64,000 nucleotides of DNA from Candidatus Brocadiia bacterium (lineage in GTDB: Bacteria > Planctomycetota > Brocadiia > CAIUPP01), in contig JBKQWE010000026.1 of assembly GCA_052139675.1 (NCBI GenBank), forward strand, positions 2,703 to 66,702. Direction: 5' to 3'. This document shows, one piece after another, positions 24,967-61,432 of this stretch. A program made the translations under genes and the position numbers. A model generated the notes under the pieces. The model searched no databases and was not told the origin of the DNA. It was given only the letters and a program-made list of their open reading frames with translations. How positions within the stretch are numbered: position 1 is the first letter of the stretch; every line of letters starts with the position of its first letter.

Positions 24967-24998
24967 CGTTCCACTCCCAAAGCAGCAACGGCTCGTTG

Positions 24999-28485: not shown

Positions 28486-28487
28486 GG

Positions 28488-44922: not shown

Positions 44923-46335
44923 TCACTGCGTGTAGCCGAGGCTCTTCAGTTGTCTGAGCAGCTCCGGATCCGGTTCATTCGCTTTCCCCGTATTGACCTT
45001 GGCAATTGAGGTCGGCCCCGTCGTCAAGGCTCGGAGTGCGGCCTCCGGACAGGCTTTCTTCAGGTCCGCGCCGGCGACGACCTTTTCGCGGTCGCCTGTC
45101 ACCTCTTCCAGTTGGGCTTCGGCAAGCGTTCCCGGCGTGCCCAAAAGCTTGTGATGGTCCCATCGAACCGCTCTCAAGTTACACTCAAACTCCGCCAGCT
45201 CGCTGTAGATCAGGCGCTCGGGGACCGGCTTGTCGCTCAGAATCATGGGCGACAGGTCAATCCCTTGAATCTTCGAGGGGCACGGCAGTTGGAGAAGCCC
45301 CAGCGCCGTCGGCATCAGGTCAACATGGCTGACGTTTCCGGCCACGCGCTTGCCGGCCGGGATGACACCCGGCAGCCGCATGATCAGCGGCGCGTGCAGT
45401 TCCTCTTCGTACAGGCTGTTGCCGTGGTAGAGCAGGCCATGTTCAAGAAATGCCTCGCCGTGATCGGACAAAACGATCACCAGCGTCTTCCCGGAAATCC
45501 CCAGGTCCTGAAGGAGTTGAAGGATCTTGCCGACATGCTCGTCCGTGAAGGCGATTCCCCCGTCGTAAAGAGCCTCCATATGCGCCAGGTCCCTGATCGA
45601 GATCCGCGACATGAGATCGTCTCGCTTCGCGCGCTGCATGATGGCGCGGCCGTTCTCCCGGCCTTTGTAATCGGGGTCGAATTTCCTGTCGAAGGGCGCG
45701 GGCGGATAATAGTCGCTATGGCAGTCCCAATAGTGCAGGAAGAGGAAGAAGTTCTCCCGGGAATGCTTCTTGAGCCATTCCGTGGCCAGATCCGTAATCA
45801 CGGGATTCCTGCGGACTGGGGGGGCGCGTAAAGCCGTCATCTTCAAGACCGTGAAGTCGTCATATGATTTGAAGCCGCGGTCGAATCCGAAGTGGTGATC
45901 CAGCGAGGGACCATTGATGAAGGCCTGCGTCAAGTATCCGATTTTGGCCAGACACTGCGCCAGCGTCGGAACGCCTTCGCCCAGTTGACTGCGAATGGTC
46001 TCCACGCCGTGGACGCTGGGATAAAGGGAGGTGAACATGCTCATGTGCGACGGCACCGTCCAGGACGACGCCGAGGTCAAGTTCTCAAAAAGGACCCCTT
46101 CCCTGGCCAGTTGGTCGAGATGGGGCGAGGTGTCCTGGTTATAGCCGTAGCATTTCAGGTGGTCGGCGCGCAGGGTATCTATCGAGATGATCAGCAGATT
46201 ATACTTGATCGGCGGCGGCGGCGCGGCGGGGCGCCGACAGTCAAGGCCGATGAAGGAAATCAACACCAGGCAGCACAGAAAGCCTCGGACGCAACGCGAG
46301 GCAAGCCCGGAAGATGCCGCTTGGGTGCGCATCAT
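44923..46335 (-). CDS. sulfatase-fold (alkaline-phosphatase superfamily, PF00884-like) membrane-anchored enzyme with Thr at the nucleophile position; probably a hydrolase/transferase, not a true sulfatase
   Basis: Start MMRTQAASSGLASRCVRGFLCCLVLISF (N-terminal anchor). ISIDTLRADHL...SASSWTVPSHMSMFTSLYP aligns to sulfatase C-x-P-x-R but reads T-V-P-S-H. Confidence 0.7.
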   Translation of the reverse strand: MMRTQAASSGLASRCVRGFLCCLVLISFIGLDCRRPAAPPPPIKYNLLIISIDTLRADHLKCYGYNQDTSPHLDQLAREGVLFENLTSASSWTVPSHMSMFTSLYPSVHGVETIRSQLGEGVPTLAQCLAKIGYLTQAFINGPSLDHHFGFDRGFKSYDDFTVLKMTALRAPPVRRNPVITDLATEWLKKHSRENFFLFLHYWDCHSDYYPPAPFDRKFDPDYKGRENGRAIMQRAKRDDLMSRISIRDLAHMEALYDGGIAFTDEHVGKILQLLQDLGISGKTLVIVLSDHGEAFLEHGLLYHGNSLYEEELHAPLIMRLPGVIPAGKRVAGNVSHVDLMPTALGLLQLPCPSKIQGIDLSPMILSDKPVPERLIYSELAEFECNLRAVRWDHHKLLGTPGTLAEAQLEEVTGDREKVVAGADLKKACPEAALRALTTGPTSIAKVNTGKANEPDPELLRQLKSLGYTQ

Positions 46336-46636: not shown

Positions 46637-47104
46637 ATGACGACGGAAGAGCGGCTGGAGAAAGTGGAGAAGGAATCGGCCGCAGCGAAGCGGCAGCTTC
46701 GACGGCTGATGATCGGCGGGCCGATCGGGCTGGCATGCGTCGCAGTCCTCCTGGCGCTGTGGGCGCGGCCGGCGGAGGTGCAGGCGCGAAAATTCGTCCT
46801 GCTCGACGAGAACGGCAAGACTCGCGCCCTGCTGGCCATGGAGGAGTTCGGGCCGAGGCTGAGCCTGGCCGACGCGCAAGGCAAGACCCGCGCCGCGCTG
46901 TGCGTGGCGAAGACCGGGCCGGTGTTGAACCTGTCCGACATGAACGGCACCGCCCGCGCCGGCCTCGCCGTGCTGAAGGATGGGCCGGTGCTGAACCTGG
47001 ACTATGGGAACGGCAAGACCCGCGCCCTGCTGGCCGTGGAAGAGGGCGGACCGGGCATGCGGTTGTACGACGGGAACGACAAGATCCTCTGGTCCGCGCC
47101 GTAA
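46637..47104 (+). CDS. small membrane-anchored tandem-repeat protein (4.5 x ~22-aa repeats, xNGKTRAxLAVxxxGPxLNLxD)
   Basis: GAGGGAA ribosome-binding site before ATG 46637. N-terminal hydrophobic helix, then DENGKTRALLAMEEFGPRLSLA / DAQGKTRAALCVAKTGPVLNLS / DMNGTARAGLAVLKDGPVLNLD / YGNGKTRALLAVEEGGPGMRLY / DGNDKILW. Confidence 0.5.
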   Translation: MTTEERLEKVEKESAAAKRQLRRLMIGGPIGLACVAVLLALWARPAEVQARKFVLLDENGKTRALLAMEEFGPRLSLADAQGKTRAALCVAKTGPVLNLSDMNGTARAGLAVLKDGPVLNLDYGNGKTRALLAVEEGGPGMRLYDGNDKILWSAP

Positions 47105-47141: not shown

Positions 47142-48580
47142 TCACTGGGTGTAGCCGAGGCTCTTCAGCCGGCCGATGAGTTCCGCATCCGATTCATCCG
47201 ATTTCCCCGCATGGGCCGTGGAGATCGAAGGCGGGCCCTCTGTGAAGGCTCGGAGCGTCGCTTCCGGACAGGCTTTCTTCAGGCCCGTCCAGTCGGCAAT
47301 GACCTTCTCGCGGCCGCCGGCCACTTCTTCCAATTGGGCGCCGGCCAGTGTTCCCATCGTGCCCAGGAGCTTGCGATTGCCCCAGCGAACCGCTCTCAAG
47401 TTAAGCCCGCTGAACGTCATCTCGCTGTAGATCAGGCGCTCGGGAACCGCCTGATCGCCCAGGATCATCGGCGACAGGTCAATCCCTTGCATCTGCGCGG
47501 GGCCCCTCAGATGAAGGAGCCCCAGCGCCGTCGGCATCAAGTCAACGTGGCTGATATTTCCGGCCACGCGCTTGCCGGCCGGGATCACGCCCGGCAGCCG
47601 CATGATCAGAGGGACGTGAAGCAGCTCTTCGTACAGGCTGTTGCCGTGGCGAAGCTTGCCGTGCTCGAGGAATGCCTCGCCGTGATCGGATAGAACGATC
47701 ACCAGCGTCCTCTCGGAAATCCCCAGGTCCTGGAGCAGTTGAAGGATCCTGCCGACGTGCTCGTCCGTGTGGGCGATTTCCCCATCGTAGAGAGCCATCA
47801 TGTGCGCCAGGTCCATGACCGAGATATACTTCAGGATGTCTCGCTCGCGCTCGAAGACACGGCGGCCATTCTCTGCACCCTGGTAGCCGGGGTCGAATTT
47901 CCTGTCGTAGGGCGCGGGCGGAACATAGTCGTAATGGCAGTCCCAATAGTGCAGGAAGAGGAAGAAATTCTCGCGGGAATGCTTCTTGAGCCATTGTGTG
48001 GCCAGATTCGTGATCACAGGATTCGTGACGACCCGGTCAAGCCTGCCGCTGTCCTGCAGCGCCGCTGCTCCCGGTTCCTCGAACGTCAGGCCGACTGTGA
48101 AATCATCATAGAAACGGAAGCCGCGGTTGAATCCGTAGCGGTGGTTCAGCGGCGGCCCCGTGACGAACGCCGCGGTCACATATCCGCTTTGGGCAAGGCA
48201 CTGCGCCAGGGTCGGAACGCCTTCGCCCAGCTTATTATCGAAGTCCTGCACGCCGTGGACGCTGGGATAAAGCGAGGTGAACATGCTCATGTGCGACGGC
48301 ACCGTCCAGGACGACGCCGCGGTCAGATTCTCAAAAAGGGTCCCTTCCCTGGCCAGTTGATCGAGATGAGGCGAGGTGTCCCGGTCGTAGCCGTAGCATG
48401 TCAGGTGATCGGCGCGGCAGGTATCTATTGAGATGAGGAGAAGGTTGTACCTGGGCGCCGGCGGCGGCTCCGCCGCGCAGACGGTCAGGGTGGACAGACA
48501 GCAGACCAGGATCAGGCCGGCCAGAACGCAGCCGGCCGCTCGCAAAAGACCGCCGACGCGCCTAAAACATCGGCTTCCCA
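47142..48580 (-). CDS. sulfatase-fold enzyme, paralog of 44923..46335 (Thr nucleophile position)
   Basis: Start MGSRCFRRVGGLLRAAGCVLAGLILV. Same TSPHLDQLAREGTLFENLTAASSWTVPSHMSMFTSLYP motif. Its 5' end overlaps the stop of the upstream gene by 19 nt. Confidence 0.7.
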
Positions 48581-50763
48581 TCCAAGCCCTCGGGCAGCGG
48601 GACATTGAACGCGCGCAGGATCGTCGGGGCGATGTCCACCAGGGACGGCGATTGGGCGGTGCAGTGCACGTTGCTGACGAACGTGCCCGGCACGCACGGG
48701 GCATCCACGAGATGATCGCCGTCCCACGATTCGTTGTTCGCCACCACGGCGGCGCCCGCCGGGCCGGCGCCCACGGCCGTCTGCCACGAGGCGCGGTAAC
48801 CGGGGTGATAGCCCATGATCAAGTCGGGCGCTTCCTCGACGCATTCACCCTTGTACACGTCTTCCTTCCGGTACACGTTGCGCACCACCGGCTTGCCCGT
48901 GTCCGGATCGTTCCACGCGCGGAGTTTCCGCACCAGCTCGTCCTGGAGCTGCCGCGCCTCTTCGCCGCGCTGCACGATGCCCTGCCCGTCGCGCCCGGCG
49001 ATGTTCAGGTACAGGCTGCAGAATCCCACGGCGTAGGCTTTGGTCCTCGACCAGTCCACGTTCTTCAGGAGCGGCGCTTCTTCGGCGTCGTCGGAATCTT
49101 TAAGGTGCATGTACCCGTTCTGGATGAGCCAGCGGTTCAGATGGACGGCGCGGAGGAAGCTCGTGAAGCCGTGGTCGGAGAGGACGAAAATCGCCGTGTC
49201 CTTGTCCACCTTCGCCAGCGCCCTGCCGAGGACGGCGTCCATCCGCTTGTAGTGCTCGATAATCGCCGGCGCGGAACTGGTCTCGGTGGGCGGCCGCGTG
49301 CGGGCGGCGTCATCGTCCTCCCAATACATGTGCTCGATCCGGTCGCTCGTGTCGAAGACGATGGCCAGCAGGCCCTTGTCGAACTTCTTCAGTTCCAGGT
49401 CGAACATCGCCTCGCGCTCGGTCGTGAGCCGATCGCACAACTGCAGGAACGCCGTCGAAGGAATGCGCCCGTGCAGGACGGCCTGCGTGTCCTCGGGCAT
49501 GCCGAGCGTGGAGAACGAGCCGATGGCCCGCGCCAGGTCGCCGGCGCCGCCGGCCGGGTGGCTGATCGGGAACGCGGGGTTCTTCGGGTCAATCTGGGGC
49601 GCGGTGGCGTAGAGCTTCAAGTCCGGCTCCAGGCTCACCAGATAAAACCGCACCATCGCCGGGCAGTCGCGCGAGATGCCGCCCGGGAAGGAGATGGAAA
49701 GGTAGTCCGACCATTGTCCCGGCGCCAGGTCCAGCGGGTCGTTCTTTCCGCAGCGCAGCGTGATTTTCTGCTGCTCGGGGACGCGCTGGATGCTCAGGGG
49801 AACGGCGCTGGTCTTCTGGCCGGTGAACCCCATGACCAGCGGGCCGGGGATTTCCGTCTGGATAGCCGACCCGTTCCACGTCACCTCCACGACGCGGTCG
49901 GGGGCCTTGTCGTCGGCGGCGAGGGGCGCCGTGGTGAAAAAGGCGTAACGGCCCAAAGAGCCGGTCACGTCGGGCGTGCCCAGGCCGCTCAGCAAGCTGC
50001 CGTTGACCGGCTGCGCGGGGAAAGTCACCGGCCAGCGCAGGACCACCGTCGGGATGCCCTGTGCGCCCAGGATGTCCCAGAACGCCTTCTGCGCGGAGGG
50101 AAGAACATACGGCTGGCCGGATCGCCGCCAGGAGCCTTTGGTGGAAGTCTTCAGGATCGAGAGGTCCGGCAGATAGTTCTCGGGGTTGCGGCGGATGTAA
50201 TCGAAAAGGCCGTGCCGGCCGGGGTTCATGCCGGTCGCGGCGGACATCCACGCCACCGGGCTCTCGGGCGGAATCGCCGTCTGCAGCGTCGAGAACGTCC
50301 CTTCGCGCGCGAGCTTGGCGAAATTGGGCATGCGGCCGTCGTCCATCATGCGCTCGACCAGCCGCGGGTCCAGCCCGTCAATGCCGATCACGATCACCCG
50401 TTTGTACGCCACCTCGCTCCCTTTCGTTGCCAGCGCAACCGACGCACGCCCACGATGCTCGACCAGCCCAAACCCCAGGACAAGCAGGCCGCAACCGACC
50501 GCGATCAGCGCGATGGTGCGGCCCTTCATTTTCCTGATTGCCGGGAACTTCCTCCAGAAGCCCGTGACGCGCAGCACCACCGCCCAGAACAGAAAGAACA
50601 CGGCGGAGACGCACCCGATAATGATCCCGATGATAGGGCCCAGGCTGCTCCAGACCTGCTGCGCGGTGCCCGGATCAATGTAGGCGAAGGCGCTCGGCGC
50701 GCCGAGAATTGCCATCAGGAGGATGGTCAGCATCAGTTTCACTCGAAGGCCGCGCGGGCGCAT
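48562..50763 (-). CDS. membrane-anchored alkaline-phosphatase-superfamily enzyme, type I phosphodiesterase / nucleotide pyrophosphatase (NPP) family
   Basis: True start ATG 50763 ([21 protein letters not shown]), sharing 1 nt with the cysN stop (TGATG). Three N-terminal transmembrane helices, then VIVIGIDGLDPRLVERMMDDGRMPNFAKLAREGTF...HGLFDY, a PF01663-like core. Confidence 0.65.
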   Translation of the reverse strand: MRPRGLRVKLMLTILLMAILGAPSAFAYIDPGTAQQVWSSLGPIIGIIIGCVSAVFFLFWAVVLRVTGFWRKFPAIRKMKGRTIALIAVGCGLLVLGFGLVEHRGRASVALATKGSEVAYKRVIVIGIDGLDPRLVERMMDDGRMPNFAKLAREGTFSTLQTAIPPESPVAWMSAATGMNPGRHGLFDYIRRNPENYLPDLSILKTSTKGSWRRSGQPYVLPSAQKAFWDILGAQGIPTVVLRWPVTFPAQPVNGSLLSGLGTPDVTGSLGRYAFFTTAPLAADDKAPDRVVEVTWNGSAIQTEIPGPLVMGFTGQKTSAVPLSIQRVPEQQKITLRCGKNDPLDLAPGQWSDYLSISFPGGISRDCPAMVRFYLVSLEPDLKLYATAPQIDPKNPAFPISHPAGGAGDLARAIGSFSTLGMPEDTQAVLHGRIPSTAFLQLCDRLTTEREAMFDLELKKFDKGLLAIVFDTSDRIEHMYWEDDDAARTRPPTETSSAPAIIEHYKRMDAVLGRALAKVDKDTAIFVLSDHGFTSFLRAVHLNRWLIQNGYMHLKDSDDAEEAPLLKNVDWSRTKAYAVGFCSLYLNIAGRDGQGIVQRGEEARQLQDELVRKLRAWNDPDTGKPVVRNVYRKEDVYKGECVEEAPDLIMGYHPGYRASWQTAVGAGPAGAAVVANNESWDGDHLVDAPCVPGTFVSNVHCTAQSPSLVDIAPTILRAFNVPLPEGLDGKPMF

Positions 50764-52001
50764 CAGAGGTTCACCTCCTGGACGAGGCCGCCGCCGGCTG
50801 TTTCCGGCCCGCGCGTCAGGATCAGGCGGCCGAGTTCCGGGACGCAGGAGGGAAGCTCCGCGACGATCGGCCGGTCGAGAGCGATGACGACCTCGCCCAG
50901 CTCCGTCTCCTCCAGGCGGTCCGCCGGCGCTTCCAGCGTTTCCAGCGAGGCCGAATCCATCCGCCGCTCGATGGACTCGACCCTGCCGGAAATCTCCTGC
51001 GTCGAAAGACGCACCTGAAGCGCTTCTCCCTTCCGGCAGGCATTGCCCGCCATCCAGAAGACGCTGGCGCGGAACCGGCTCGTCGGGCTCGGCAGCGTCC
51101 CCGCGCAGCCGATGTCTCCGCGCGAGGGCAACCGGGCGGAATCGAGCGCCAGCCCGATGCATTCGCCGCTGACCGCTTCGTTGCGCTCCTGGCCGAAAAC
51201 CTCGACGCCCGTCACCCGGGTCTTCAGGCCCGAAGGCAGGAATAGAAGCGCCTGGCCCGCCTCCAAGCGCCCCGACTCGATGCGCCCGACCAGGAGCTTG
51301 CGCCCGTTCCAGGCGTAAATATCCTGAACCGGGAACCGCAGCGGCCCCTCGACGGACCGCGAGATCGCCTGCAGCGCGTCGAGCGCTTCCAGGAGGATGG
51401 GACCGTCATACCAGCTCATGGCGTCGGAACGATGCTCGACGTTCTCGCCCAGCAGCGCCGAGCCGGGAATAGACGATGCGGACTCCAGGCCCACGGCCTT
51501 GAGATACTGCCTTGCCGCTTCGGCCACGGCCTCGAACTGCGCGCGATCATGGTTGACCTTGTCCATCTTGTTGATCCAGACGAGCACCTGGCGGATTCCC
51601 ATGAGGGAGAGGAAATGGGCATGCCGCTTCGTCTGCTCGCGCACCCCTTCGCACACGTCCACGACCAGGACCGCCGCCTCGGCCTGGGCGGCGCCGGTGA
51701 TCATGTTGCGCATCAGCTCCCGATGGCCGGGCGCGTCTATGATGACGTAGTCGCGCCGGGGCGTGTGAAAGAAGGCCTGGGCGGTGTCAATGGTCATCTC
51801 GTCCCGGCGCTCTTCCTGGAGGTGGTCCATCAGGTGGGCGTACTCCATCTCGCGCCCGCGCTCCAGGGAGACCTGGCGGATCTCCTCCAGCCTTTCCGGC
51901 GCCACGGAGCCGGTGTCGCTGAGGAGCCGGCCGATGAGCGTGGATTTCCCGTGGTCGAGATGGCCGACGATGACCAGCTTGAGGGTCTCGCGTTCCGGCA
52001 T
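50763..52001 (-). CDS. cysN: sulfate adenylyltransferase subunit 1 (GTPase CysN; no APS-kinase fusion)
   Basis: G1 [27 protein letters not shown] boxes, followed by EF-Tu-like beta-barrel domains. Confidence 0.8.
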
Positions 52002-52010
52002 GTCCGCTTC

Positions 52011-52805
52011 CTACATATAGCCCAGGGCCCGAAGCTTCTGCATGGTGTAGGCGGCCTCCTTGTCCTGGGCGCGGCCGCTGCGTTCGGAGGTTCGCGTGGT
52101 GAGAAGTTCCTCGACGATCTGATCCAGGGTCTCGGCCGTCGAAGGCACCGGCTCGCAACAGGTCGCGCAGCCGATGCTGCGATAGCGTTTTCCGCCCTTG
52201 GCGAAGTAGAGATTGACGATGGGAATCTGCTCGCGGCGGACGTACGACCAGACGTCCACCTCGCGCCAGTGCAGCAGCGGATGGACTCTTACGTGCGTGC
52301 CGCCTTCGGCCTGGGACTTGTACTGGTCCCACATTTCGAGCGGCTGGTTCTGGTAGTCCCACTGAAATTGTTCGTCGCGCGGGGAGAAATAGCGCTCCTT
52401 GGAGCGGATGCCGTGCTCGTCGCGGCGGATGCCGAGGAGCAGCGCCTGGAACTTGAACTTCTCGATGGCCTGGCGCAGGGCGTCGGTCTTGAGGGCCGTG
52501 CAGCAGGCGAATTTCTCGCCGTGCGGGCCCATGCCGGCGGCGATCGCCTCCTCGTTGCGCACGATGCGCAGGTCCAGGTCCCACTTCTTGGCGTATTCGT
52601 CCCGGAACGCGTAAATTTCCGGGAACTTATAGCCGGTGTCAATGTGCAGGATGGGGAACGGAATCTTGCCGAAGAACGCCTTGCGCACCATCCAAAGCAG
52701 CGTGGTGGAGTCCTTGCCGATGGACCAGAGCATCGCCATCTGGCGGAAGTGATAGTAGGCCTCGCGGATGATATAGATCGTCTGGTTCTCAAGCGAATCG
52801 AGCAT
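52011..52805 (-). CDS. cysD: sulfate adenylyltransferase subunit 2 (CysD, PAPS-reductase-like ATP pyrophosphatase fold)
   Basis: SIGKDSTTLLWM (PP-loop), HIDTGYKFPE and C-terminal LRALGYM typical of CysD. Confidence 0.8.
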   Translation of the reverse strand: MLDSLENQTIYIIREAYYHFRQMAMLWSIGKDSTTLLWMVRKAFFGKIPFPILHIDTGYKFPEIYAFRDEYAKKWDLDLRIVRNEEAIAAGMGPHGEKFACCTALKTDALRQAIEKFKFQALLLGIRRDEHGIRSKERYFSPRDEQFQWDYQNQPLEMWDQYKSQAEGGTHVRVHPLLHWREVDVWSYVRREQIPIVNLYFAKGGKRYRSIGCATCCEPVPSTAETLDQIVEELLTTRTSERSGRAQDKEAAYTMQKLRALGYM

Positions 52806-52998
52806 GTGGGCCGCCAGAGGCAGTGATCGGAGTTTCCCGGATGGCTTTCGTCCGCATGACGGTCAGCCATCGGACTGACTATTCCATTTTGACGCTCCGG
52901 GTCCGAATTGTCAAGCAAATTCTCGGATTGACAGCGCTTTCACTCTCCTGCGATTTGTGGTAAACACCAGATTGCGGGGCTGTTAACCGCTTAACGCT

Positions 52999-54225
52999 AT
53001 GGAAGGCCGGAAGGCTGTGAAGAAGTCCGAAAACACGTTGCGGTTCGCATTCTTGAAACTTTCAAGACGTTGGATTGACTGCCTCTGCCTCGCGGTTGGA
53101 ATCGTCGCGCTCGCCACGTGCCTGCGCATCGAGCCTTTCGTCAAGATCGCGCGCATCGCACCCCGGCTGATTCGACAGCGCATCGCCGCCGTTTCCCAGA
53201 TGATGTACGGCGAGGGGTTTATCGGCGATGTGTTTCAGGACATGATCGGGTTCCGGCGGCTCTGCGAGCATCGTGATCCTTATCCGATCCTCGAACCCGC
53301 CGCCCGAGAGCTCGGGTTTGACACGCGATGGCCTCACGCGAGCACTCATCCTCCCACGGCCTTTCTCCTGGTCGCGCCGATTGCCTATATGCCCATGCCT
53401 TTGGCCGAGCAGGATTGGATCGCTTTCAGCATGGCCCTGATCTTCGTCAGCCTGCTCTGCTATCACGTGCGCTGGATGGCGGCGCTGGGGATCTCCCTTT
53501 TCTCGGGAGTTCTCTGGGGGCCGATTTTTACCTCGTTCCAGCAGATTACGCTGATCTGGCTCGCGGGAATCGCCGTCGCGTATCGCTGCCGCTTCCACCG
53601 CACATTCTGGGCCGGCGTCGGGATCGGCGCAGCCTCTCTCACCAAGCTCGTTCCGCTGGGCATTCTGGCGTACTTCCTGTTCATGCGGAAGTACCGCGCG
53701 GCGATCGGGGCGGCGATCGTCTGGATCGGCGCTCTGGCCGTTCTGCTCGCGCTGCAGCCGGGAGTGTTCGCCCGCTACCTGGAAATGAACCGGCAGAACC
53801 TGTGGACGCAAATCATGCGGCGGGACAACGTCTCGGTCTTCGCGCGCGCCTACGATCTTCTGGGCGGTTTTGGCCTCGCGGCGCTCCTGGCTTACGCCGG
53901 CTTCCTGGTCTGGCGGAATCGAAAGGCCATTTTCGTCCCGGCGCAATCCCCCGATTATTCTTTCTTCTTCTACAGTTTCGTGGCGGTGATGGTCCTTCCT
54001 CTCTGTTGGAGTTTCTCGCTGGCGCCTCTGCTGCCGGTCCTGGGATATTTCCTTTTACGCGGCCGCAGGCCTCATAAGATCGTCTCCGCCGTTTGCCTTT
54101 CAGCTCTAGCGGCATTGCCCACCTACACACAGCCGTTGCTGACTTCCGCCGTACTCCTGCTGTCCAGCGCGTTGTTCTGCCTGGAACAGCCGGGTCCAGG
54201 CGCAGCCACGCAGCACCCGGCGTGA
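52999..54225 (+). CDS. polytopic membrane protein (possibly GT-C / DUF2029-like glycosyltransferase)
   Basis: More than 9 predicted transmembrane segments with short loops. TTGTGGTAAAC promoter-like motif 30-40 nt upstream. Family assignment tentative. Confidence 0.4.
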   Translation: MEGRKAVKKSENTLRFAFLKLSRRWIDCLCLAVGIVALATCLRIEPFVKIARIAPRLIRQRIAAVSQMMYGEGFIGDVFQDMIGFRRLCEHRDPYPILEPAARELGFDTRWPHASTHPPTAFLLVAPIAYMPMPLAEQDWIAFSMALIFVSLLCYHVRWMAALGISLFSGVLWGPIFTSFQQITLIWLAGIAVAYRCRFHRTFWAGVGIGAASLTKLVPLGILAYFLFMRKYRAAIGAAIVWIGALAVLLALQPGVFARYLEMNRQNLWTQIMRRDNVSVFARAYDLLGGFGLAALLAYAGFLVWRNRKAIFVPAQSPDYSFFFYSFVAVMVLPLCWSFSLAPLLPVLGYFLLRGRRPHKIVSAVCLSALAALPTYTQPLLTSAVLLLSSALFCLEQPGPGAATQHPA

Positions 54226-54276
54226 GCGGCCGGCGCGCAGCGCGTCGCGCGCGGTCGGTCGCTCCTGTGAACCTTT

Positions 54277-54882
54277 TCAGGCGGTTCCGGGCCTGCGGGG
54301 AAGAAGGTTGCGTCCCAGATTGACGGCGGAGAATGCGCCGAGGACAAGCGCGAACGTCAACGAACCGGCGACGTGCGAAGCCCATCGTTCCCGGCCGAGT
54401 TCGCGGGAGGTCTTGACCTCGCGATTCGCTGCGAACTGGTCACTCTCGACGATCCGCTCATTGGGCGACGAGGAGAAGAACGTATCCGGATCGCTGCGCA
54501 GCGTGGGCGCAAGGAACGCGCACGCGATGACCGCCACGAGAACGAGGGCCGCGACGTGCTTGGCCACCTGCCACGCAAACGCGCCCTTCGGATGGAATCG
54601 GTCGAGGCAGGCGGCTGCGATCAACCCCAGCAGACCGGCGCCCAAACCGGCCCCCAGCGCCCCGCCTTCGCGCAGGCGCAGCATGACCACTGCCTGGCTG
54701 ACAATGAAGGCCGAAGCCCACAGCGCCATGATCCACAAGGGGCGCCACGAGAACCGAATCCACGGACGATCCATTTGAGCCCTCGATTCCAGAATGTCAG
54801 TGTTCGGCACATTCTGACGAGAGAGGCCGCTGCCGTCAAGGATTTTTCGGCGTTCCGCCGAAGGCTCGTTTGACAGCGACAA
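54277..54882 (-). CDS. hypothetical membrane protein
   Basis: ORF with about 4 hydrophobic segments. No homology recognised. Start uncertain. Confidence 0.3.
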   Translation of the reverse strand: MSLSNEPSAERRKILDGSGLSRQNVPNTDILESRAQMDRPWIRFSWRPLWIMALWASAFIVSQAVVMLRLREGGALGAGLGAGLLGLIAAACLDRFHPKGAFAWQVAKHVAALVLVAVIACAFLAPTLRSDPDTFFSSSPNERIVESDQFAANREVKTSRELGRERWASHVAGSLTFALVLGAFSAVNLGRNLLPRRPGTA

Positions 54883-54979
54883 CGGGAGTGTCTAATCTCA
54901 TGCCTCAAAGCCGACCGTCCTTCGGAGGACGGTCAAATGGGAAATCCAGGTAATTCGTTGGGCCAGTTCGGAAGGACAT

Positions 54980-57844
54980 GTGATGAAGAAGCTCTTGCGG
55001 TCGGCGGCGCTGGTTTCGGCTGTGCTGGTCATCGCGGCCTCAGCGCGGGCCGAGGAAAAGAAGGTCACGTTCGATAACAAGGAAGCCATCGCCGGGTGGA
55101 CGGTGTCCGGCGACGTGGCGGTTGACGCGGCGAAGACGCGCCCGGACGGCGCGGGCGGGTCGCTCAAGATCGGCCCGGGCGGCAAGGCCGTCTGGAAGCT
55201 CGGCGACGCCGACCTTTCGGGCAAAGTGGAGTTCTGGGTTTACGAGGACGGCAAGGCGCCGGCGGACCCGAAGGCGCACGGCTACGGGTCGCTCTGGGGC
55301 GTCATGACGGCGGACGGCCACGCCCTGGTCAGCGGGGCGATCTATGCTCCGTACCTGGGCGGCGACACGACGTACGCCGTGGGCGAGTTCAATCCGGCGA
55401 AGGCGGGCGACCTGCCCTCGCTCAAGTGCCAATACCTCGGGCTGGACCGCGCGGTCGGCTGGCACAAGTGGACGTTCGACATGGACGCCGATACGGGCCT
55501 GACGATCCTGGTGGACGACAAGGATGTGAACGGGACGACGCCCAAGTCGCGGTTCGACTGGAACAAGACGGATCTTCCGGGAATCGCGGCCATCATTTTC
55601 ATGGGCGACGCGACCAAGGACGCCGCGCAGACTCTGTGGGTCAACGGCCTGACCGTGGCCCAGGGCCCGGCGATGACGGCCAGGCTGGCGCCGCCTCCGC
55701 CGCCGCCGCCGTTCCTGCCGGAGAAGGATCCCGCCGCGGCGGAAGGGCCGGCGGTCAAGTACGTCGCTGCCTTGGCCAACCAGCATCCGCGGCTGCTGTT
55801 CACCGCCGACCGGATTGCGCAGCTCAAGGCGTTTTACAACAGCCCGCAGGGCAAGACCTACCGGCAGGAGATGGAAGGATACATGGCCGGATGCACGGTG
55901 CCGGCGGACCGCAAGACGAGCCCGGCCTGGGGACAGGAGTACGGCCTGTTCAAGATGCCGATGGTCGCTCTGCACTATGTGCTGACCAAGGACCCCGATT
56001 CATTCCAGAAGTCGGTGGCGTACCTGAAATGGCTTGCCGGGACGGCCGATTGGACCGAGGGCGGCGAGCCGGCCGTGGAAGACACGCCGGAAGCCTACGC
56101 GAAAGTCATGGAGAAGTTGAAGGCGCTGGGACCTTACGACGAGCGGAACAGCGACACGACCGCTTCGTTCTGCATGGTCGGCGCGTCGCTCACCTGGGAC
56201 TGGCTGTACAACGACCTGGACCCGGCGTTCCGGGAGATGTTCCGGCAGGTGCTCTGGGAGCACGCCCGCGTGATGTACTACGGCGGCCACAAGGGCGGCA
56301 ATCCCGAGGGCGGCTATTGGCGCGGCGTGCCGGCGTATAATCACCGCTGGTTCCGCGACTGGGGCCTGACGCTGGCGGCGCTCGGCGCGGGCGAGGGCAA
56401 ACCGGAGCAACAGTGGCTGCTCAGCGAAGTGGAGAAGGAACTCAAGTTCATGGCGGCGTGGCTGCCGGTGGACGGCAGCCAGCACGAAGGCCCGGGTTAC
56501 GGCTCCAGCGCGGGCGCGCTGGGAATGGCCTTCGAGGTCTCGGACGATTTGAGCGGGACGCATTACCTCGACACGCCGTTCTTCAAGAGCGTCGCGGAAT
56601 ACACGATGGAGACCTCGGCGCCGGGCATGGAGGAGTCGCTCTACTTCGCCGATTGCTGGACCAAGGAACTCGGCATGAATTCGTTCTTCCTGAAAACCGC
56701 CGCGGCGCACAAACAGGCCGACGTCATGGACGGCATCCGGCATGCCCTCCAGCTCCACGCGAAGGATTGGGGCACGGAGGATTCCGCCTGGGAGCCGCTG
56801 ATCTACGATGATTCGAACATCAAAGGCGGGCGCTACGCCAACCTGCCGAAGTCGGCGTTCCTGCCGGACCTGGGGATCTCCATCAGTCGCGATTCCTGGC
56901 AGGACAAGGCCGTGGCCGCGATGTTCAAGTGCGGGCCGATGGGCGGCTACAAATCCAACTCCTGGCGCCCGACCCATATGGACGGTCAGAACCTGCCCTA
57001 CCTGAACGTGGCGCACGACCATCCCGATGCGAACTCCTTCATCGTCCTGGGCGACGGCGAGTACCTGGCCGAGACGGACCGCTATTGTGAGCAGCCGGGC
57101 AAGCTCTCCTCGAGCATCAATACGATCCTGATCAACGGCATCGGCCAGGCCGCGGACGGGCGGCCCGAAGGGGACACCTGGCAGCAACCCGGCGGCGCCG
57201 ACATGACCGAGCAGGGCAAGATCACCGCTTACAAGGACGCCGGCGACGTCGTGGTGACCGAAGGCGAGGCGGCCGGATCGTACCTGGCCTACGGCGAGCC
57301 CGGGGCCAGGAAGAGTCGCCCGGCGCTGGACCGTTTCCGCCGGACGTTCATCTGGGTCAAGGGCGGCTACATTCTGACGTTCGACGACATCCGTTCGTCC
57401 AAGCCGGTCGAGATCACCTGGCTCATCCAGGGCGCCAAGCTTCAGCCGGTGAGCGCGGCCGAGGGACGGTATAAGCTGGCCAAGGGCCAGGCCCAGTGCG
57501 AGTTCCAGCTTGTGGCGGACGTGCCGCTCCAGTCGAAGATCGGCGTCTCGACCGCCAACGATCACAGCAAACTGATGAACTGGCAGCAGCTCCAGGCCAG
57601 CGCCGAAGGGACCGCCGCGCGGTACGCCTGCGTTATTGACCCGTGGCACAAGAACGTGAAGGTGACCCTGACGCCCGACGGACCGGACAAGGCGACCCTC
57701 ACGGTCAGCGGCCCGGGCATCGCCGACACGTGGCAATGGCAGGCGGGCAAGGGCAAGTTCGAGGCGGCCACCTGGCACGGCTCGCGCCGCGGCGGGTTCG
57801 ACATTACGGTGGACGCCAAAACGGCTGTGCCGCCGTCGCCGTAA
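54980..57844 (+). CDS. secreted heparinase II/III-like (alpha/alpha-toroid + beta-sandwich) polysaccharide-lyase-family protein with N-terminal lectin/LamG-like module
   Basis: Signal peptide (MMKKLLRSAALVSAVLVIAASARA). N-terminal beta-sandwich, proline linker (PPPPPPP), large toroid-like middle domain, and C-terminal beta-sheet domain. Family call by architecture only. Confidence 0.45.
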   Translation: MMKKLLRSAALVSAVLVIAASARAEEKKVTFDNKEAIAGWTVSGDVAVDAAKTRPDGAGGSLKIGPGGKAVWKLGDADLSGKVEFWVYEDGKAPADPKAHGYGSLWGVMTADGHALVSGAIYAPYLGGDTTYAVGEFNPAKAGDLPSLKCQYLGLDRAVGWHKWTFDMDADTGLTILVDDKDVNGTTPKSRFDWNKTDLPGIAAIIFMGDATKDAAQTLWVNGLTVAQGPAMTARLAPPPPPPPFLPEKDPAAAEGPAVKYVAALANQHPRLLFTADRIAQLKAFYNSPQGKTYRQEMEGYMAGCTVPADRKTSPAWGQEYGLFKMPMVALHYVLTKDPDSFQKSVAYLKWLAGTADWTEGGEPAVEDTPEAYAKVMEKLKALGPYDERNSDTTASFCMVGASLTWDWLYNDLDPAFREMFRQVLWEHARVMYYGGHKGGNPEGGYWRGVPAYNHRWFRDWGLTLAALGAGEGKPEQQWLLSEVEKELKFMAAWLPVDGSQHEGPGYGSSAGALGMAFEVSDDLSGTHYLDTPFFKSVAEYTMETSAPGMEESLYFADCWTKELGMNSFFLKTAAAHKQADVMDGIRHALQLHAKDWGTEDSAWEPLIYDDSNIKGGRYANLPKSAFLPDLGISISRDSWQDKAVAAMFKCGPMGGYKSNSWRPTHMDGQNLPYLNVAHDHPDANSFIVLGDGEYLAETDRYCEQPGKLSSSINTILINGIGQAADGRPEGDTWQQPGGADMTEQGKITAYKDAGDVVVTEGEAAGSYLAYGEPGARKSRPALDRFRRTFIWVKGGYILTFDDIRSSKPVEITWLIQGAKLQPVSAAEGRYKLAKGQAQCEFQLVADVPLQSKIGVSTANDHSKLMNWQQLQASAEGTAARYACVIDPWHKNVKVTLTPDGPDKATLTVSGPGIADTWQWQAGKGKFEAATWHGSRRGGFDITVDAKTAVPPSP

Positions 57845-57979
57845 TGCGGGCGGCAAGGCGTACCCAGAATTCCCCGGTCGTGATCGCAAGCATCCGCGAA
57901 ATATCGGCTCAGAACATGATGCGAAGGATCCTTCTGGGGTCCGCCTGACTCGGATACAAAAACTCCAGTGAGGTAGAGT

Positions 57980-59068
57980 ATGAGCGGATTCTCCGCTACC
58001 AGACTGCAGATCTTGACCCTAGCCACACTGGTCCTCTTCGCCGTCGGCTGCGCTCGCGACAGGAAAGGCCCCGGCGAGAGCGTTTTGAGCGCGATGCCGG
58101 CCGGCCAGGCCGTCGCCTCGCAGGAGCAGGAGATCACCCCGTTGGATTTCGGCGCCGTCGGCGACGGCAAAGCCGACGACACGCAGCCGCTGCAGGCTGC
58201 CGTGGATGCGGCCATCTCGAAGAAGATCAAGCTGACCTCGCCCATGTCCGCCGTTTATGCGATCAAGGCTCCCATCCAGGTGCGTAGCACACTCAACGCC
58301 GATTTCCAAATGGCCGAGATCCGGGCGGCCGCCCCGATGGAAGCCCTCCTGCGGTATGAAACCTGGGACCGCTACACCCTGATCCAAAATCTCCGCCTCG
58401 ACGGGAACCTGATGGCCGACACCTGTCTCGACATCGTTGTCGGAAGCAAGATGCGGGTGGACAATCTGATCACAGGCCGCCATCGCAAGATCGCGTTGAA
58501 GATCGCAAAAGGAAATGAGATCTTCGTGCAGAACTCCCACATCAATGCGGCGACACCCGAGGACAACAGCGCCGAGTCCGCCGAGGACACCGTCGGGATA
58601 GATATCGCCACTTCGGACTGCCACTTCTCCGACATCGTGATCATTGACTGCAAGACGGCGATTATCAACCGCGGGCTCAACTACTACAGCCGCATCCACG
58701 CCTGGACCTTCAAGCCGGAGATCATAAAGGACTCCGTCTTCTTCGATCTCTGGCGGGACTGCATCATCTCCGAAAGCTTTGCCGACACCTTCTACATCTG
58801 CTTCCGGCTGCGCCGGCCGGGAATCGGGTGCAAGATCATCGGCTGCACCTCGTACTACAACGAGGAATTCTACCGGGCCGACCGAGGGCATGTGGCGCCC
58901 TACCTCTTCTGGGTGGACGAGGGCGACGGCCGGGGCACCGCCATGCAGTCGTCCGTAATGCTGGCCCCCAAAGCCATGGACGGGCACTACGCCAACATCG
59001 CAAACTGCGCCGTCTATACCGACGGCTCGACCAGTTTTTCCCGCTGGCAGGGCGCGCCCGAGCATTGA
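57980..59068 (+). CDS. lipoprotein, right-handed beta-helix 'pectate lyase superfamily' (PF12708 / GH28-GH55-like) protein
   Basis: Lipobox LFAVGC. Signature ITPLDFGAVGDGKADDTQPLQAAVDAA. Confidence 0.65.
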   Translation: MSGFSATRLQILTLATLVLFAVGCARDRKGPGESVLSAMPAGQAVASQEQEITPLDFGAVGDGKADDTQPLQAAVDAAISKKIKLTSPMSAVYAIKAPIQVRSTLNADFQMAEIRAAAPMEALLRYETWDRYTLIQNLRLDGNLMADTCLDIVVGSKMRVDNLITGRHRKIALKIAKGNEIFVQNSHINAATPEDNSAESAEDTVGIDIATSDCHFSDIVIIDCKTAIINRGLNYYSRIHAWTFKPEIIKDSVFFDLWRDCIISESFADTFYICFRLRRPGIGCKIIGCTSYYNEEFYRADRGHVAPYLFWVDEGDGRGTAMQSSVMLAPKAMDGHYANIANCAVYTDGSTSFSRWQGAPEH

Positions 59069-59294
59069 GGGCTGCGGCCGGCTGCGACGATAGCAGCACA
59101 AGATAAGTCGTGTGCCCCGGAACTCCCGAATGGTTCGGCCCGTTCCGTGTTCGGGGACAGGGCCTTGACAACACTCTCCCATCGGCGGAGATGTAACGGC
59201 CTTTCCTGCGGACGCGAAGGCGGACCTGGCGAAGGCGGAGGCTACTGTGGTGAGCCTAGTCACGGCCGGGAAAAAGGCGGTGTAGCTAGATTGG

Positions 59295-59324
59295 AGCGGG
59301 GCGGCAGATTATCGCCGCCCCGCT
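59295..59324 (+). terminator. perfect 11-bp GC-rich hairpin (AGCGGGGCGGC-agattatc-GCCGCCCCGCT) followed by AATATTT; candidate intrinsic terminator
   Basis: Only the + strand has a U-rich tail after the hairpin. About 225 nt downstream of the 59068 stop. Confidence 0.3.
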
Positions 59325-59474
59325 AATATTTCCGAGAGGGTTCAGCCTTTACTTGATCTCCGATGGCGACCGCAGTCATAGGTCGCGCATCCGGCATCTC
59401 ACGCCTACTTCCCGAATCTTCGTTCAGATCACTGAGAAAGAAGGCAAAGAAGCACCAGCACGAAGTCTAAATCC

Positions 59475-59888
59475 TCATTTCTCGTCCTCGATTCCTTCTT
59501 TTCGCTTCCAGCGACGATTCAGGAAGAAGGCTATTCCTATGGCTATTCCCAGTCCAGGTAAAACGCCAAGCAGGAACGCGGCCATACCAACGACGGAATG
59601 CATTTGTCCCATGATGAACTGCCCTGCGAAGCATCCGATGATTACGCCGATGCTGACACCCAACCATCTCCTCTTGAAACCATAGTCCAAGCCCCCGTTC
59701 ATTGCGAATGCAATGAACGTGTAGAACGAGCCGAGGGCGAAGATGGCTAGAATATCCCAGTATTCCCGGACGTGCTGCTTGAGAATGAACTGGCGATAAT
59801 AAAGAGAAATCATCATTGAAATGAACAAAATAAAGTAACCTCTTGCTGCAATACGGTTGATGGTGTTCTGAATGCGTTCATCCTGCAT
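59475..59888 (-). CDS. small 4-TM membrane protein partnered with an XRE regulator (DUF2975-like module?)
   Basis: 137 aa, four hydrophobic helices, low G+C. 11-nt overlap with the upstream HTH gene. Confidence 0.55.
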   Translation of the reverse strand: MQDERIQNTINRIAARGYFILFISMMISLYYRQFILKQHVREYWDILAIFALGSFYTFIAFAMNGGLDYGFKRRWLGVSIGVIIGCFAGQFIMGQMHSVVGMAAFLLGVLPGLGIAIGIAFFLNRRWKRKEGIEDEK

Positions 59889-60090
59889 GTTCGGATTCCT
59901 CCCAGAAAAGGTCGTTCAGGGTCTTGCCGAGCGCCTTGGCGATTGCGATGCAAAGATTCAAGGTGGGATTGTACCCGCCGTTTTCGATCAAGCCGATGGT
60001 TTGGCGTGTGACGCCGGCTTTTTCGGCGAGTTCGGCCTGCGTGAGGTTGTGCTCAACTCTGGCCAACTTCAATTTGATTCTTTGGTTCAC
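59878..60090 (-). CDS. XRE-family helix-turn-helix transcriptional regulator (Cro/cI-like, 70 aa)
   Basis: LTQAELAEKAGVTRQTIGLIENGGYNPTLNLCIAIAKALG is a canonical HTH_3 motif. Confidence 0.8.
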   Translation of the reverse strand: MNQRIKLKLARVEHNLTQAELAEKAGVTRQTIGLIENGGYNPTLNLCIAIAKALGKTLNDLFWEESEHAG

Positions 60091-60424
60091 TTTGACTCCT
60101 TATTAGAAGGTTATTTAGCATTATGCAAGGTATATATTGCGGAATATAATATATATCTGTCATATTGTCAAGGATATTCTTTGCTGCAAAACGCGGCTTA
60201 TTACGTAAGCACTTATCTTGAAGTGCTTTGCAATCATGCTTTTTTCAGAAATTACCGAATATTTCTCGAATTCAATCGAATGGCAGCATCGAGAGCATGG
60301 TAACTGCTGTGAAAGAGACGGGCTAGCCAGATTCGGCCTCGTTTTCACCGGCGTGGCAGTACAGTGGTCAGTAGGCCATTTTCAGATTTCGTAACTCTCG
60401 ACGCCACAGACACTAACGAATGGC

Positions 60425-60476
60425 GGCGCTCAGACTGGGGGTCTGGCGGTCGCGGGTTCAAGTCTCGCCGGCAACC
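60425..60476 (+). pseudogene. tRNA-Pro(GGG) 3' fragment (D-stem 3' half, anticodon arm TCAGA-CTGGGGG-TCTGG, variable loop, T-arm GCGGG-TTCAAGT-CTCGC, acceptor 3' strand CGGCAAC + discriminator C); no 5' acceptor strand present
   Basis: T-loop GTTCAAGTC, U33 and G37 flanking a GGG anticodon. The complementary GTTGCCG is absent within 120 nt upstream, so this is a partial tRNA copy (possible integrative-element att remnant). Confidence 0.45.
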
Positions 60477-60559
60477 TCTTACGCCGAAAGACATTACCGG
60501 CCGAATCATATCGTGGCCGGCACCGGGCGTCAACGGAAAAGTCGTGCCGCAACGGCTGC

Positions 60560-61432
60560 TTGCAAGGTCGGCAGGTGATGGATATAATCCAACGGGTTTT
60601 CGGCGGCCTTGCCCGTCGCAGGGACCTCGCTTCCATCATCGCGTCCGGATCGGAGCACGGCGTGCGCCCATCACCGATGATCTACTATCGCGACCTGGTC
60701 TGGGTCCTCGTCGCGAAGGAACTGAAGCTCCGCTACCGGAACACGGTCCTGGGGTACGCGTGGTCCGTGCTCAATCCGCTGGCGTTCGCCATGGTGTTCT
60801 TCGTCGTCTTCAAGATATTCATGCGCATTCCGGTTCCGAACTACACCCTCTACCTGATCACGGGCCTGTTCCCCTGGCAATGGTTTGCGAACTCCGTCAC
60901 GGCCTCGAACTACTTCTTTCTCGACAACAGTTCCCTCATCAAGAAGGTGAAGTTCCCGAGGTATTTCCTGGTCGTTGCGGGCGTCCTGAACGACCTGATT
61001 CACTTCGCCTTCTCGATCGCGGTGATCGTCGTCTTCATGATCTTCTATCACAAGGTCCCGGCGCTGAACTGGATCGTGCTGCTGCCTTTCCTGGTGCTGG
61101 TGCAGTTCCTGCTCACGATGGGGATCGCGCTCTTCGTGTCCAGCTGCAACTTGTTCTTCCGAGACTTGGAGAGGCTCGCGGGGGTCGTGGTCATGCTTTG
61201 GTTCTACGCGACGCCGGTGATCTATCCGGTGGACATGATTCCGCAAAGACTCAAATGGGCGACCTTCGCCAATCCGATGGCCCCGCTGATCATCTGCTGG
61301 CGAAGCCTCTTCATGGGAACCCCTTTATCGTTTTTCTACCTCGGGCAGGCTGCGGCGTGGGCCGTGCTGATTTTCATGGTCGGCCTTCAGGTCTATAAGT
61401 CCCTCGAGTGGAGGTTCGCCGAGATTGTCTAG
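60560..61432 (+). CDS. ABC-2 type polysaccharide/teichoic-acid exporter permease (Wzm/KpsM/TagG family)
   Basis: Six transmembrane helices. ABC-2 signature region LGYAWSVLNPL...LFPWQWFANS. Confidence 0.8.
   Translation: MQGRQVMDIIQRVFGGLARRRDLASIIASGSEHGVRPSPMIYYRDLVWVLVAKELKLRYRNTVLGYAWSVLNPLAFAMVFFVVFKIFMRIPVPNYTLYLITGLFPWQWFANSVTASNYFFLDNSSLIKKVKFPRYFLVVAGVLNDLIHFAFSIAVIVVFMIFYHKVPALNWIVLLPFLVLVQFLLTMGIALFVSSCNLFFRDLERLAGVVVMLWFYATPVIYPVDMIPQRLKWATFANPMAPLIICWRSLFMGTPLSFFYLGQAAAWAVLIFMVGLQVYKSLEWRFAEIV

Follow-up and report, generated by a model that had tools for sequence, protein, structure and literature searches.

Bacterial sulfation is thought to run through adenosine 5'-phosphosulfate (APS) kinase, 3'-phosphoadenosine 5'-phosphosulfate (PAPS) and P-loop sulfotransferases. 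Several dedicated sulfation pathways with their own sulfate activation have been described, including NodPQ-NodH, RaxPQ-RaxST and the mycobacterial CysDNC-Stf0 system. Here, we analyzed a cysD-cysN operon of a Candidatus Brocadiia bacterium (assembly GCA_052139675.1, contig JBKQWE010000026.1, positions 2,703 to 66,702; this whole stretch of 64 kb is called the window below), in which the two ATP sulfurylase genes are followed by genes for two enzymes of the alkaline phosphatase (AlkP) superfamily. The first is a membrane-anchored protein with the nucleotide pyrophosphatase/phosphodiesterase (NPP) fold, and the second is a sulfatase-fold protein with Thr at the formylglycine position. An AlkP gene takes the position of cysC in a distinct branch of CysDN systems, which excludes APS kinase and the assimilation genes cysH, sir and sbp. 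We tentatively read this arrangement as a conserved sulfate-activation module with an AlkP enzyme in place of CysC, whose activated sulfate would serve envelope sulfation with the AlkP enzymes as sulfuryl-handling catalysts, a reading to which we give slightly less than even chances.

The recurrence of the arrangement was analyzed by tblastn in 80 metagenomic loci containing the closest relatives of the window CysN (40-50% identity), 65 of which have at least 700 nt of sequence 3' of cysN and were tallied for the gene found there. In 17 of these loci, cysN is followed on the same strand, mostly at a distance of 8-140 nt, by an NPP-family gene encoding a protein of 410-445 aa with no signal peptide or transmembrane (TM) segment. 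An AlkP-superfamily gene is present elsewhere in the locus in 11 cases, APS kinase is fused to or directly downstream of cysN in 24, and the last group has neither an APS kinase nor an AlkP gene near cysN (13/65). Several members of the last group are of the assimilatory type: cysH is found upstream, or one of sir, siroheme synthase and sbp downstream. Others have a GT4 glycosyltransferase or a NusG-like gene. A small AlkP-like gene for a protein of 238 aa starts at or overlaps the cysN stop in two metagenomic loci, one from the group with neither partner (L148:1290-2006) and one from the group with the AlkP gene elsewhere (L133, near 9263). The same small protein of about 238 aa, which has no Pfam match on record, follows a cysD-x-cysN arrangement in a Thermoplasmata archaeon (L094:11248-11961), and it is probably the smallest version of the partner in the cysC slot.

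Altogether, 32 of the 80 loci are AlkP-linked. None of them contains an APS kinase, which is present in 25 of the other 48 loci (Fisher p=1.6e-7), and none contains cysH, sir or sbp, which occur in nine of the other 48 (Fisher p=0.0095). The CysD proteins are divided in a similar way: identity to the window protein is about 62-72% for most AlkP-linked loci, 56-61% where reductive genes are present and 48-59% where there is a kinase. Most of the AlkP relatives linked to cysN are predicted to be cytoplasmic. The annotated contigs include the arrangements cysD-cysN-NPP440 and cysN-NPP432, as well as an operon with overlapping starts in the order SulfT-cysD-cysN-GT2-GDSL, where SulfT is the sulfatase-fold gene. 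Genes for glycan assembly recur as neighbours: GT87 in the window, PMT_2-type GT-C glycosyltransferases in Acidobacteria and Terriglobia, and, in other loci, GT2, GT4, Wzx, Wza/Wzc/Wzy and a UbiA-family gene. No Sulfotransfer domain (Pfam) was found in the annotated related contigs. The CysDN/AlkP association is far beyond chance and argues for a role of the AlkP enzymes with activated sulfate outside of assimilation.

A second set was assembled from the NPP side and comprises 80 species-representative genome loci from many phyla with NPP homologues of 35-47% identity, in which ATP sulfurylase was scored within 10 kb. A sulfatase-fold homologue is present in 30 and an ATP sulfurylase in 21 of these loci, and cysH, sir and sbp are absent from all 80. 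The 21 ATP sulfurylase loci comprise 11 of the CysDN type, with no APS kinase in any of the 11, and ten with a fused APS kinase-Sat protein (Sat-CysC, a PAPS synthase). The CysDN-type loci come from Planctomycetota, Acidobacteriota/Thermoanaerobaculaceae and Omnitrophota, and several have the cysD-cysN-NPP order of the window. The Sat-CysC loci come from Gemmatimonadota and Terriglobia, where the NPP paralogues have no signal peptide; some of them also hold PHP or IMPase proteins as candidates for a 3'-phosphoadenosine 5'-phosphate (PAP) phosphatase, an extra APS kinase or a Na/sulfate symporter. A relative whose NPP is 83% identical (L084) has the order SulfT...cysD-cysN-NPP with the same one-base overlap between cysN and NPP, but its sulfatase-fold gene is now located upstream of cysD. 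Other annotated contigs show the orders SulfT-x-x-NPP and NPP-SulfT, and SulfT-NPP-NPP beside a stand-alone APS kinase. In Omnitrophota, a gene for a periplasmic protein resembling arylsulfate sulfotransferase (ASST) is located directly after cysD-cysN and convergent with NPP, which suggests that sulfuryl groups may generally be handled outside the cytoplasm in the CysDN-AlkP systems. The cysDN-AlkP pairing recurs in both sets; the link is common but patchy, and the gene orders are shuffled.

In the window (G+C about 65%), the four codon-biased open reading frames (ORFs) are arranged head to tail on the minus strand in the order cysD, cysN, NPP, sulfatase-fold gene, in agreement with the earlier note (Table 1). 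The start of cysN is 9 nt from the stop of cysD. Base 50763 belongs to both the TGA of cysN (50765-50763) and the ATG of NPP (50763-50761), as the note had described, and its overlap of 19 nt between the NPP and sulfatase-fold genes was corrected to 20 nt from the sequence. The gene starts at this overlap are the same in an independent contig (L001) and in a 479-aa protein from NCBI. A G+C-rich hairpin followed by a T-rich tract lies over the same junction and could attenuate read-through or modulate coupling. We rejected it as a terminator separating the two genes, as such sites show no significant excess over shuffled sequences (11 versus 6.4 +/- 2.5).

Table 1. Features of the sulfate-activation operon and its surroundings (positions in the window)
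Feature	Position	Strand	Basis or remark
cysD, sulfate adenylyltransferase catalytic subunit, short form, 264 aa	52011-52805	minus	NF003587, PF01507
cysN-like GTPase subunit, 412 aa, no APS-kinase domain	50763-52001	minus	GTP_EFTU, D2, eEF1A_C
NPP-fold AlkP-superfamily enzyme, membrane-anchored, 733 aa	48562-50763	minus	PF01663
Sulfatase-fold enzyme, 479 aa, signal peptide, predicted exported, Thr93-x-Pro-x-His97	47142-48581	minus	PF00884
NPP/sulfatase-fold overlap, 20 nt (sulfatase-fold ATG from 48581, NPP TAG end at 48562)	48562-48581	minus	Sequence read
Promoter-like site TTGACA-17-CAAAAT, about 80 nt upstream of cysD	52886-52914	minus	10/12 consensus positions
Hairpin, 8 bp, G+C-rich, then T-rich tract, over NPP stop and sulfatase-fold start	48552-48574	minus	Hairpin scan
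Small convergent ORF, TM protein with repeated GKTRA-type (G-K-T-R-A-x-L) units, no Pfam match, ends the operon	46637-47104	plus	ORF and Pfam scan
Second sulfatase-fold paralogue, 72% identical, motif WTVPSH, separate transcription unit	44923-46335	minus	Sequence comparison and tblastn
GT87-like (GT-C) membrane glycosyltransferase, divergent from cysD, possible functional neighbour	52999-54225	plus	Pfam scan
GT87-like GT-C, 954-aa protein with no Pfam match, pectate-lyase-like beta-helix protein, ABC-2 permease/ATPase pair (Wzm/Wzt type); divergent from cysD	52999-62180	plus	
D12-class DNA adenine methyltransferase, unassigned 285-aa ORF, DndB-like (DNA-sulfur-modification-associated) protein	27316-30718	minus	G+C about 0.54 at 28-30 kb
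2Fe-2S thioredoxin-like ferredoxin, FeFe hydrogenase large subunit, NuoF-like flavoprotein	22664-27017	minus	
ACS/CODH beta-subunit C-terminal domain gene	100-1224	plus	

The operon is bounded on both sides. Upstream, a divergent intergenic region of 193 nt between cysD and the GT87-like gene contains a promoter-like site, which is suggestive only, as the count of such sites in this region is not above that in shuffled sequences. Downstream, the small convergent membrane ORF closes the operon and separates it from the second sulfatase-fold paralogue. Because of these boundaries, genes of the cysC, cysH or sir type are ruled out in the same transcript, which speaks against the objection named in the earlier note, that cysH, cysC or sir might lie just outside the window in the same operon. 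The search of the window combined Pfam scans of all plausible ORFs with tblastn using APS kinase, Sat, CysH, IMPase, PHP and ASST probes. It revealed no cysC, cysH, sulfite reductase, sulfate transporter, Sulfotransfer domain, ASST homologue, pst or pho genes, or cytoplasmic AlkP paralogue, which extends to the full 64 kb the note's observation that no cysH or cysC is adjacent. Upstream of cysD, no riboswitch or leader was recognized (no Rfam match in the whole window, nor at E<=1 across the operon), and an alignment of four loci contained no conserved regulatory motif. The GT87-like neighbour was tried as a conserved partner and rejected as weak evidence, as the adjacency is found in L001 and not in L084.

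CysD belongs to the NF003587 family (347 bits against a cutoff of 195; PF01507 at 2e-45) and scores below the stricter cutoffs (266 versus 397 for TIGR02039, and likewise below that of NF009214). It matches the structure of CysD from P. syringae (1ZUN_A) with 216 bits, lacking about 32 aa of the latter, and has both the PP-loop SIGKDS and the C-terminal RTSERSGR motif. From its homology to 1ZUN_A, the protein is expected to form APS from ATP and sulfate. The assignment of CysN is less direct: its GTPase G1, G3 and G4 motifs (including NKMD) are present, but it scores 317.6 with TIGR02034 (cutoff 336.1) and 318.8 with the EF-1alpha subfamily model, and its PDB matches are 263 bits for an archaeal EF-1alpha versus 232 bits for CysN 1ZUN_B. 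Its function as CysN is argued for because the gene adjoins cysD, and the cysD-cysN pair is kept in related loci. CysN contains only the GTP_EFTU, domain 2 and eEF1A_C domains (Pfam) and ends at 412 aa with no PF01583 domain, and tblastn with the APS-kinase domain found nothing in the window, so that the earlier reading of a CysN with no APS-kinase domain was borne out. In a Planctomycetota metagenome-assembled genome (MAG; JBFMAD010000020, L095:10001-12661), the gene next after that of a CysN-like GTPase (49% identical) encodes a cytoplasmic NPP-type protein of 432 aa, and no cysD is detectable within 10 kb on either side of the pair; there is a possibility that this GTPase partners the AlkP enzyme directly.

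The sulfatase-fold protein matches PF00884 (1.9e-51, 175.6 bits) and SGSH_C. Its alignment to the solved sulfatases 9s03 and 5g2v places T-V-P-S-H over S-G-P-S-R, with Thr93 at the formylglycine position and His97 at the Arg of CxPxR. The WTxPSH motif is kept in every homologue covering that position among 120 examined, down to 39% identity, and an alignment of 22 sequences of the family has nine invariant residues (D53, T93, H97, H211, D214, H216, D299, H300 and H312). Because Thr cannot be converted to formylglycine, the protein cannot be a formylglycine sulfatase. The best Foldseek matches are S1 sulfatases and phosphonate monoester hydrolase (PMH), with E values of about 1e-25 (1e-24 in phmmer). 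Thus, the Thr at the formylglycine position reported in the earlier note is borne out, but judged by sequence and fold the enzyme is a derivative of S1 sulfatases and PMH and not of the LtaS/EptA type. An Mn-dependent arylsulfatase was considered as a precedent for the Thr type and dismissed as not relevant, since the published enzyme uses Cys/formylglycine. The family is present in multiple copies on related Brocadiia-class contigs and MAGs, where the copies are probably arranged in tandem.

The origin of this protein bears on a role like that of EptA, LtaS or OpgB, in which the Thr enzyme, and perhaps the NPP protein, would be a periplasmic transferase adding a phospho-substituent, such as phosphoethanolamine or phosphoglycerol, from a membrane lipid to a polymer sulfated by a canonical sulfotransferase encoded elsewhere, with CysDN co-expressed only because both decorate one product. 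A Thr nucleophile on an exported AlkP-fold enzyme would fit such a role, as would the weak NCBIfam matches to EptA, MCR and YejM, the large N-terminal multi-TM domain of homologues in some related loci and the recurrent GT-C and Wzx/Wzy neighbours. However, the N-terminus of the window protein is formed by one signal-like helix and not by such a domain, and its sequence and fold are nearer to S1 sulfatases and PMH. The cytoplasmic AlkP proteins found in the place of CysC after cysN in at least 17 loci would be left unexplained, and no sulfotransferase was seen in any annotated related contig. We consider this role very unlikely.

The S1-sulfatase descent and the abundance of paralogues are also what would be expected of sulfur scavenging, the main rival to a module for envelope sulfation. 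AlkP esterases, possibly formylglycine-independent sulfatases, would free sulfate from organic esters outside the cell (in the window) or inside it (in the relatives), and CysDN would activate this sulfate for an APS reductase encoded elsewhere. The absence of cysC alone does not exclude assimilation, since APS reductases take APS directly, and such a route is compatible with the missing gene. Scavenging is further in line with AlkP enzymes on both sides of the membrane, as is the case for known arylsulfatases, with the Na/sulfate symporter beside PAPS synthase in some related loci and with the ASST-like periplasmic genes after cysN in Omnitrophota. In addition, close CysDN relatives with no AlkP partner are located in cysH-cysD-cysN-sir operons. 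On the other hand, the catalytic Thr is not convertible to formylglycine, and the sulfate-binding Arg of CxPxR is replaced by His. The cysH, sir and sbp genes never occur in the AlkP-linked loci of either set (0/32 and 0/21, versus 9/48), and the SulfT-cysD-cysN-GT2 operon and recurrent glycan-assembly neighbours would have no explanation. Moreover, the module is found in Omnitrophota and archaeal lineages, which have reduced biosynthetic capacity. Scavenging appears unlikely to us.

The NPP protein has the NPP core fold (PF01663 at 2.3e-37, above the gathering cutoff). From the N-terminus, it consists of a signal-like helix ending in SAFA|YIDPGT, two hydrophobic helices with a strongly basic loop between them, and a catalytic domain holding a beta-rich insert (about residues 290-400). 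In 16 homologues with this layout, the mean numbers of Lys and Arg residues are 2.3 in the N-tail, 0.2 in the YIDPG loop and 5.9 in the inter-helix loop, and the sequence after the last helix is approximately neutral. Because these charges follow the positive-inside rule, the catalytic domain of the window protein is predicted to be extracytoplasmic. Eight residues are invariant in 28 homologues (D129, S168, D474, H478, D530, H531, D683 and H684), the pattern that would be expected of a bimetallo Ser/Thr enzyme, with an assignment of residues to metals that is likewise putative. The predicted nucleophile is the Ser of an E-S-P-V-A-W motif.

The NPP family comprises 6,987 clusters at 50% identity (E<=1e-30), among which we found no characterized member, nor any close relative with a solved structure or a name. 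In the PDB, the best match by sequence is marginal (E=5.6e-6, N-terminal region only), and the closest structures are those of ENPP6, ENPP7, PafA and PhoK. Family members occur with no N-terminal extension (49/120), with a Tat or lipoprotein signal, or with the YIDPG membrane anchor. The motif Y-[IV]-[DG]-P-G (residues 27-33 of the window protein), conserved in the membrane-bound proteins of the family, stands directly before the first anchor helix. Forms with one TM helix after the motif would have a cytoplasmic catalytic domain and those with two an outside one, and the family thus seems to be active on either side of the membrane. In 13 loci from several phyla, tandem NPP-family paralogues have as a companion a membrane protein of about 276 aa that matches no Pfam family and has no counterpart in the window.

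These structural neighbours raise the alternative of a phosphate-centered role. The AlkP proteins would then be ordinary phosphodiesterases or phosphatases, which either serve a swap to sulfated envelope anions under phosphate starvation or remove pyrophosphate (PPi), AMP or PAP to pull the unfavorable ATP sulfurylase reaction. Both the NPP fold and the Ser/Thr bimetallo signatures are typical of phosphoryl transfer, and the cysC slot is a suitable position for a reaction-pulling partner. In two Omnitrophota loci, the NPP gene is located directly after phoBR-porin-pstSCAB-phoU, but this link is limited to 2 of 80 loci from a single lineage, with PhoU 88% identical, and the window contains no pst or pho genes. 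A periplasmic enzyme cannot clear cytosolic PPi, AMP or PAP, and the consumer of APS would remain without a name. We regard a phosphate-centered role as decidedly unlikely.

Returning to the sulfation module, the catalytic signatures are intact in all four operon proteins, which look catalytically competent. The short CysD/CysN ATP sulfurylase would make APS, and the slot of the APS kinase gene cysC after cysN would be filled by an AlkP-superfamily enzyme with a Ser/Thr nucleophile. The activated sulfate would go to an envelope glycoconjugate or lipid and not to cysteine synthesis, a destination that we infer because glycan-assembly genes recur nearby. The AlkP enzymes would handle the sulfuryl group through a covalent Ser/Thr intermediate, as in other members of the superfamily, and transfer from APS in this way would be the most economical mechanism. 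In most relatives, a cytoplasmic AlkP partner could take the sulfuryl group directly from APS. In the window, direct use of cytosolic APS would be topologically awkward, because an extracytoplasmic position is predicted for the NPP catalytic domain and export for the sulfatase-fold protein; here, the periplasm-facing NPP and Thr enzymes might act on an exported sulfated or phosphosulfated intermediate, or on the finished polymer. The dedicated non-assimilatory APS pathway proposed in the earlier note thus gained from the AlkP gene in the cysC slot and from the exclusion of APS kinase, cysH, sir and sbp, but its direct consumption of APS does not readily fit the operon for which it was proposed. 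A more specific proposal is that the AlkP partners form a class of PAPS-independent sulfotransferases, which would pass the sulfuryl group from APS (or PAPS in the forms linked to Sat-CysC) to Ser/Thr and on to a glycan or lipid, with cytoplasmic members loading a membrane carrier and periplasmic ones completing a trans-membrane relay. This we find doubtful.

Several points weigh against the module as a route to envelope sulfation. Both AlkP proteins of the window are predicted to be extracytoplasmic and APS is cytosolic, with no cytoplasmic AlkP paralogue encoded in the window. Ser/Thr bimetallo AlkP enzymes are typically catalysts of phosphoryl and not sulfuryl transfer, and we know of no biochemical activity or sulfated product for any member of either AlkP family. 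The sulfatase-fold family is rich in paralogues, a pattern more typical of catabolic hydrolases. The genomic association is patchy: sulfate-activation genes are missing from the neighbourhood in about three quarters of the NPP-family loci, and two planctomycete NPP relatives (52% and 44% identity) have neither partner. Finally, the CysN and NPP loci cannot be counted as phylogenetically independent cases, and truncation affects many of the contigs. Literature searches covering COG3379, AlkP-superfamily and APS-dependent sulfotransferases and anammox sulfation returned no description of a CysDN-AlkP module or of AlkP-superfamily sulfotransferases.

With these points taken into account, the module can be regarded as a dedicated type of sulfate activation with a realistic chance of containing a new enzyme class. 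The systems with an AlkP gene in the cysC slot offer a testable candidate for another path leading from APS to a product. They span Planctomycetota, Omnitrophota, Acidobacteriota and Thermoplasmata, while Gemmatimonadota and Terriglobia have analogous versions with Sat-CysC, and they provide context for an NPP family of approximately 7,000 sequence clusters. Should the reading as sulfation not hold, a formylglycine-independent sulfatase would be the most probable alternative, and this would also be new. In the polymer matrices of anaerobic and aerobic granular sludge, sulfated glycoconjugates are widespread and chemically abundant, recognizable sulfotransferases are few and the pathway has been called not well known (PMC10483923). 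The CysDN-AlkP module could fill this gap. AlkP sulfotransferases, if real, would explain how sulfated extracellular polymers arise in anaerobes, in which canonical sulfotransferases are rarely found (PMC10483923).

The surroundings of the operon contain further gene groups (Table 1). The region divergent from cysD may be devoted to glycan assembly and export. The ATPase of its ABC-2 pair clustered with the PstB proteins of other loci and was considered as PstB, but this was rejected because the Pfam assignment is to a Wzm/Wzt-like ABC-2 pair with no Pho link. The low-G+C island with the D12-class methyltransferase and the DndB-like protein looks like an acquired restriction or defense cassette. 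The ferredoxin, hydrogenase and NuoF-like genes look like an electron-bifurcating HydABC set, and together with the ACS/CODH gene they indicate an anaerobic lifestyle, possibly acetogenic or fermentative.

Compared with known systems, the window shares with the cysDNC operon of the E. coli type a tightly coupled cysD and cysN and, directly after cysN, a third gene whose product is presumed to consume APS. In E. coli-type operons this gene is cysC, whereas in the window it encodes the NPP-fold AlkP enzyme; in addition, the window CysD is about 32 aa shorter than 1ZUN_A, and CysN falls under the TIGR02034 cutoff and scores as close to archaeal EF-1alpha as to CysN. The NodPQ-NodH, RaxPQ-RaxST and CysDNC-Stf0 systems resemble the window in having a CysDN paralogue tied to the modification of envelope or secreted molecules and not to cysteine synthesis. 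These systems depend on an APS kinase, either fused or adjacent, for making PAPS and on P-loop sulfotransferases; the window has neither and encodes two AlkP enzymes instead. With the NPP/ENPP proteins (Xac NPP, ENPP4/6/7) and PafA/PhoK, only about 330-380 of the 733 residues of the window NPP protein can be aligned, and the latter differs by its YIDPG membrane anchor at the N-terminus and by a beta-rich insert about 100 residues long. The Thr enzyme has in common with S1 sulfatases and PMH the full two-subdomain fold and the positions of the first Asp and the D-H pair, but C/S-x-P-x-R is changed to T-x-P-x-H, Thr takes the place of the second Asp in the DD pair, and there are several extra invariant His and Asp residues. 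It resembles EptA/MCR, LtaS, OpgB and BcsG in being an exported AlkP-fold domain with a Thr nucleophile, although its similarity to these proteins is weak (PDB E values of about 1e-8, well under the sulfatase matches). The periplasmic, PAPS-independent ASST, an exported enzyme of a type encoded right after cysD-cysN in Omnitrophota, has a beta-propeller fold unrelated to AlkP and provides a precedent for extracytoplasmic sulfuryl transfer through a covalent intermediate.

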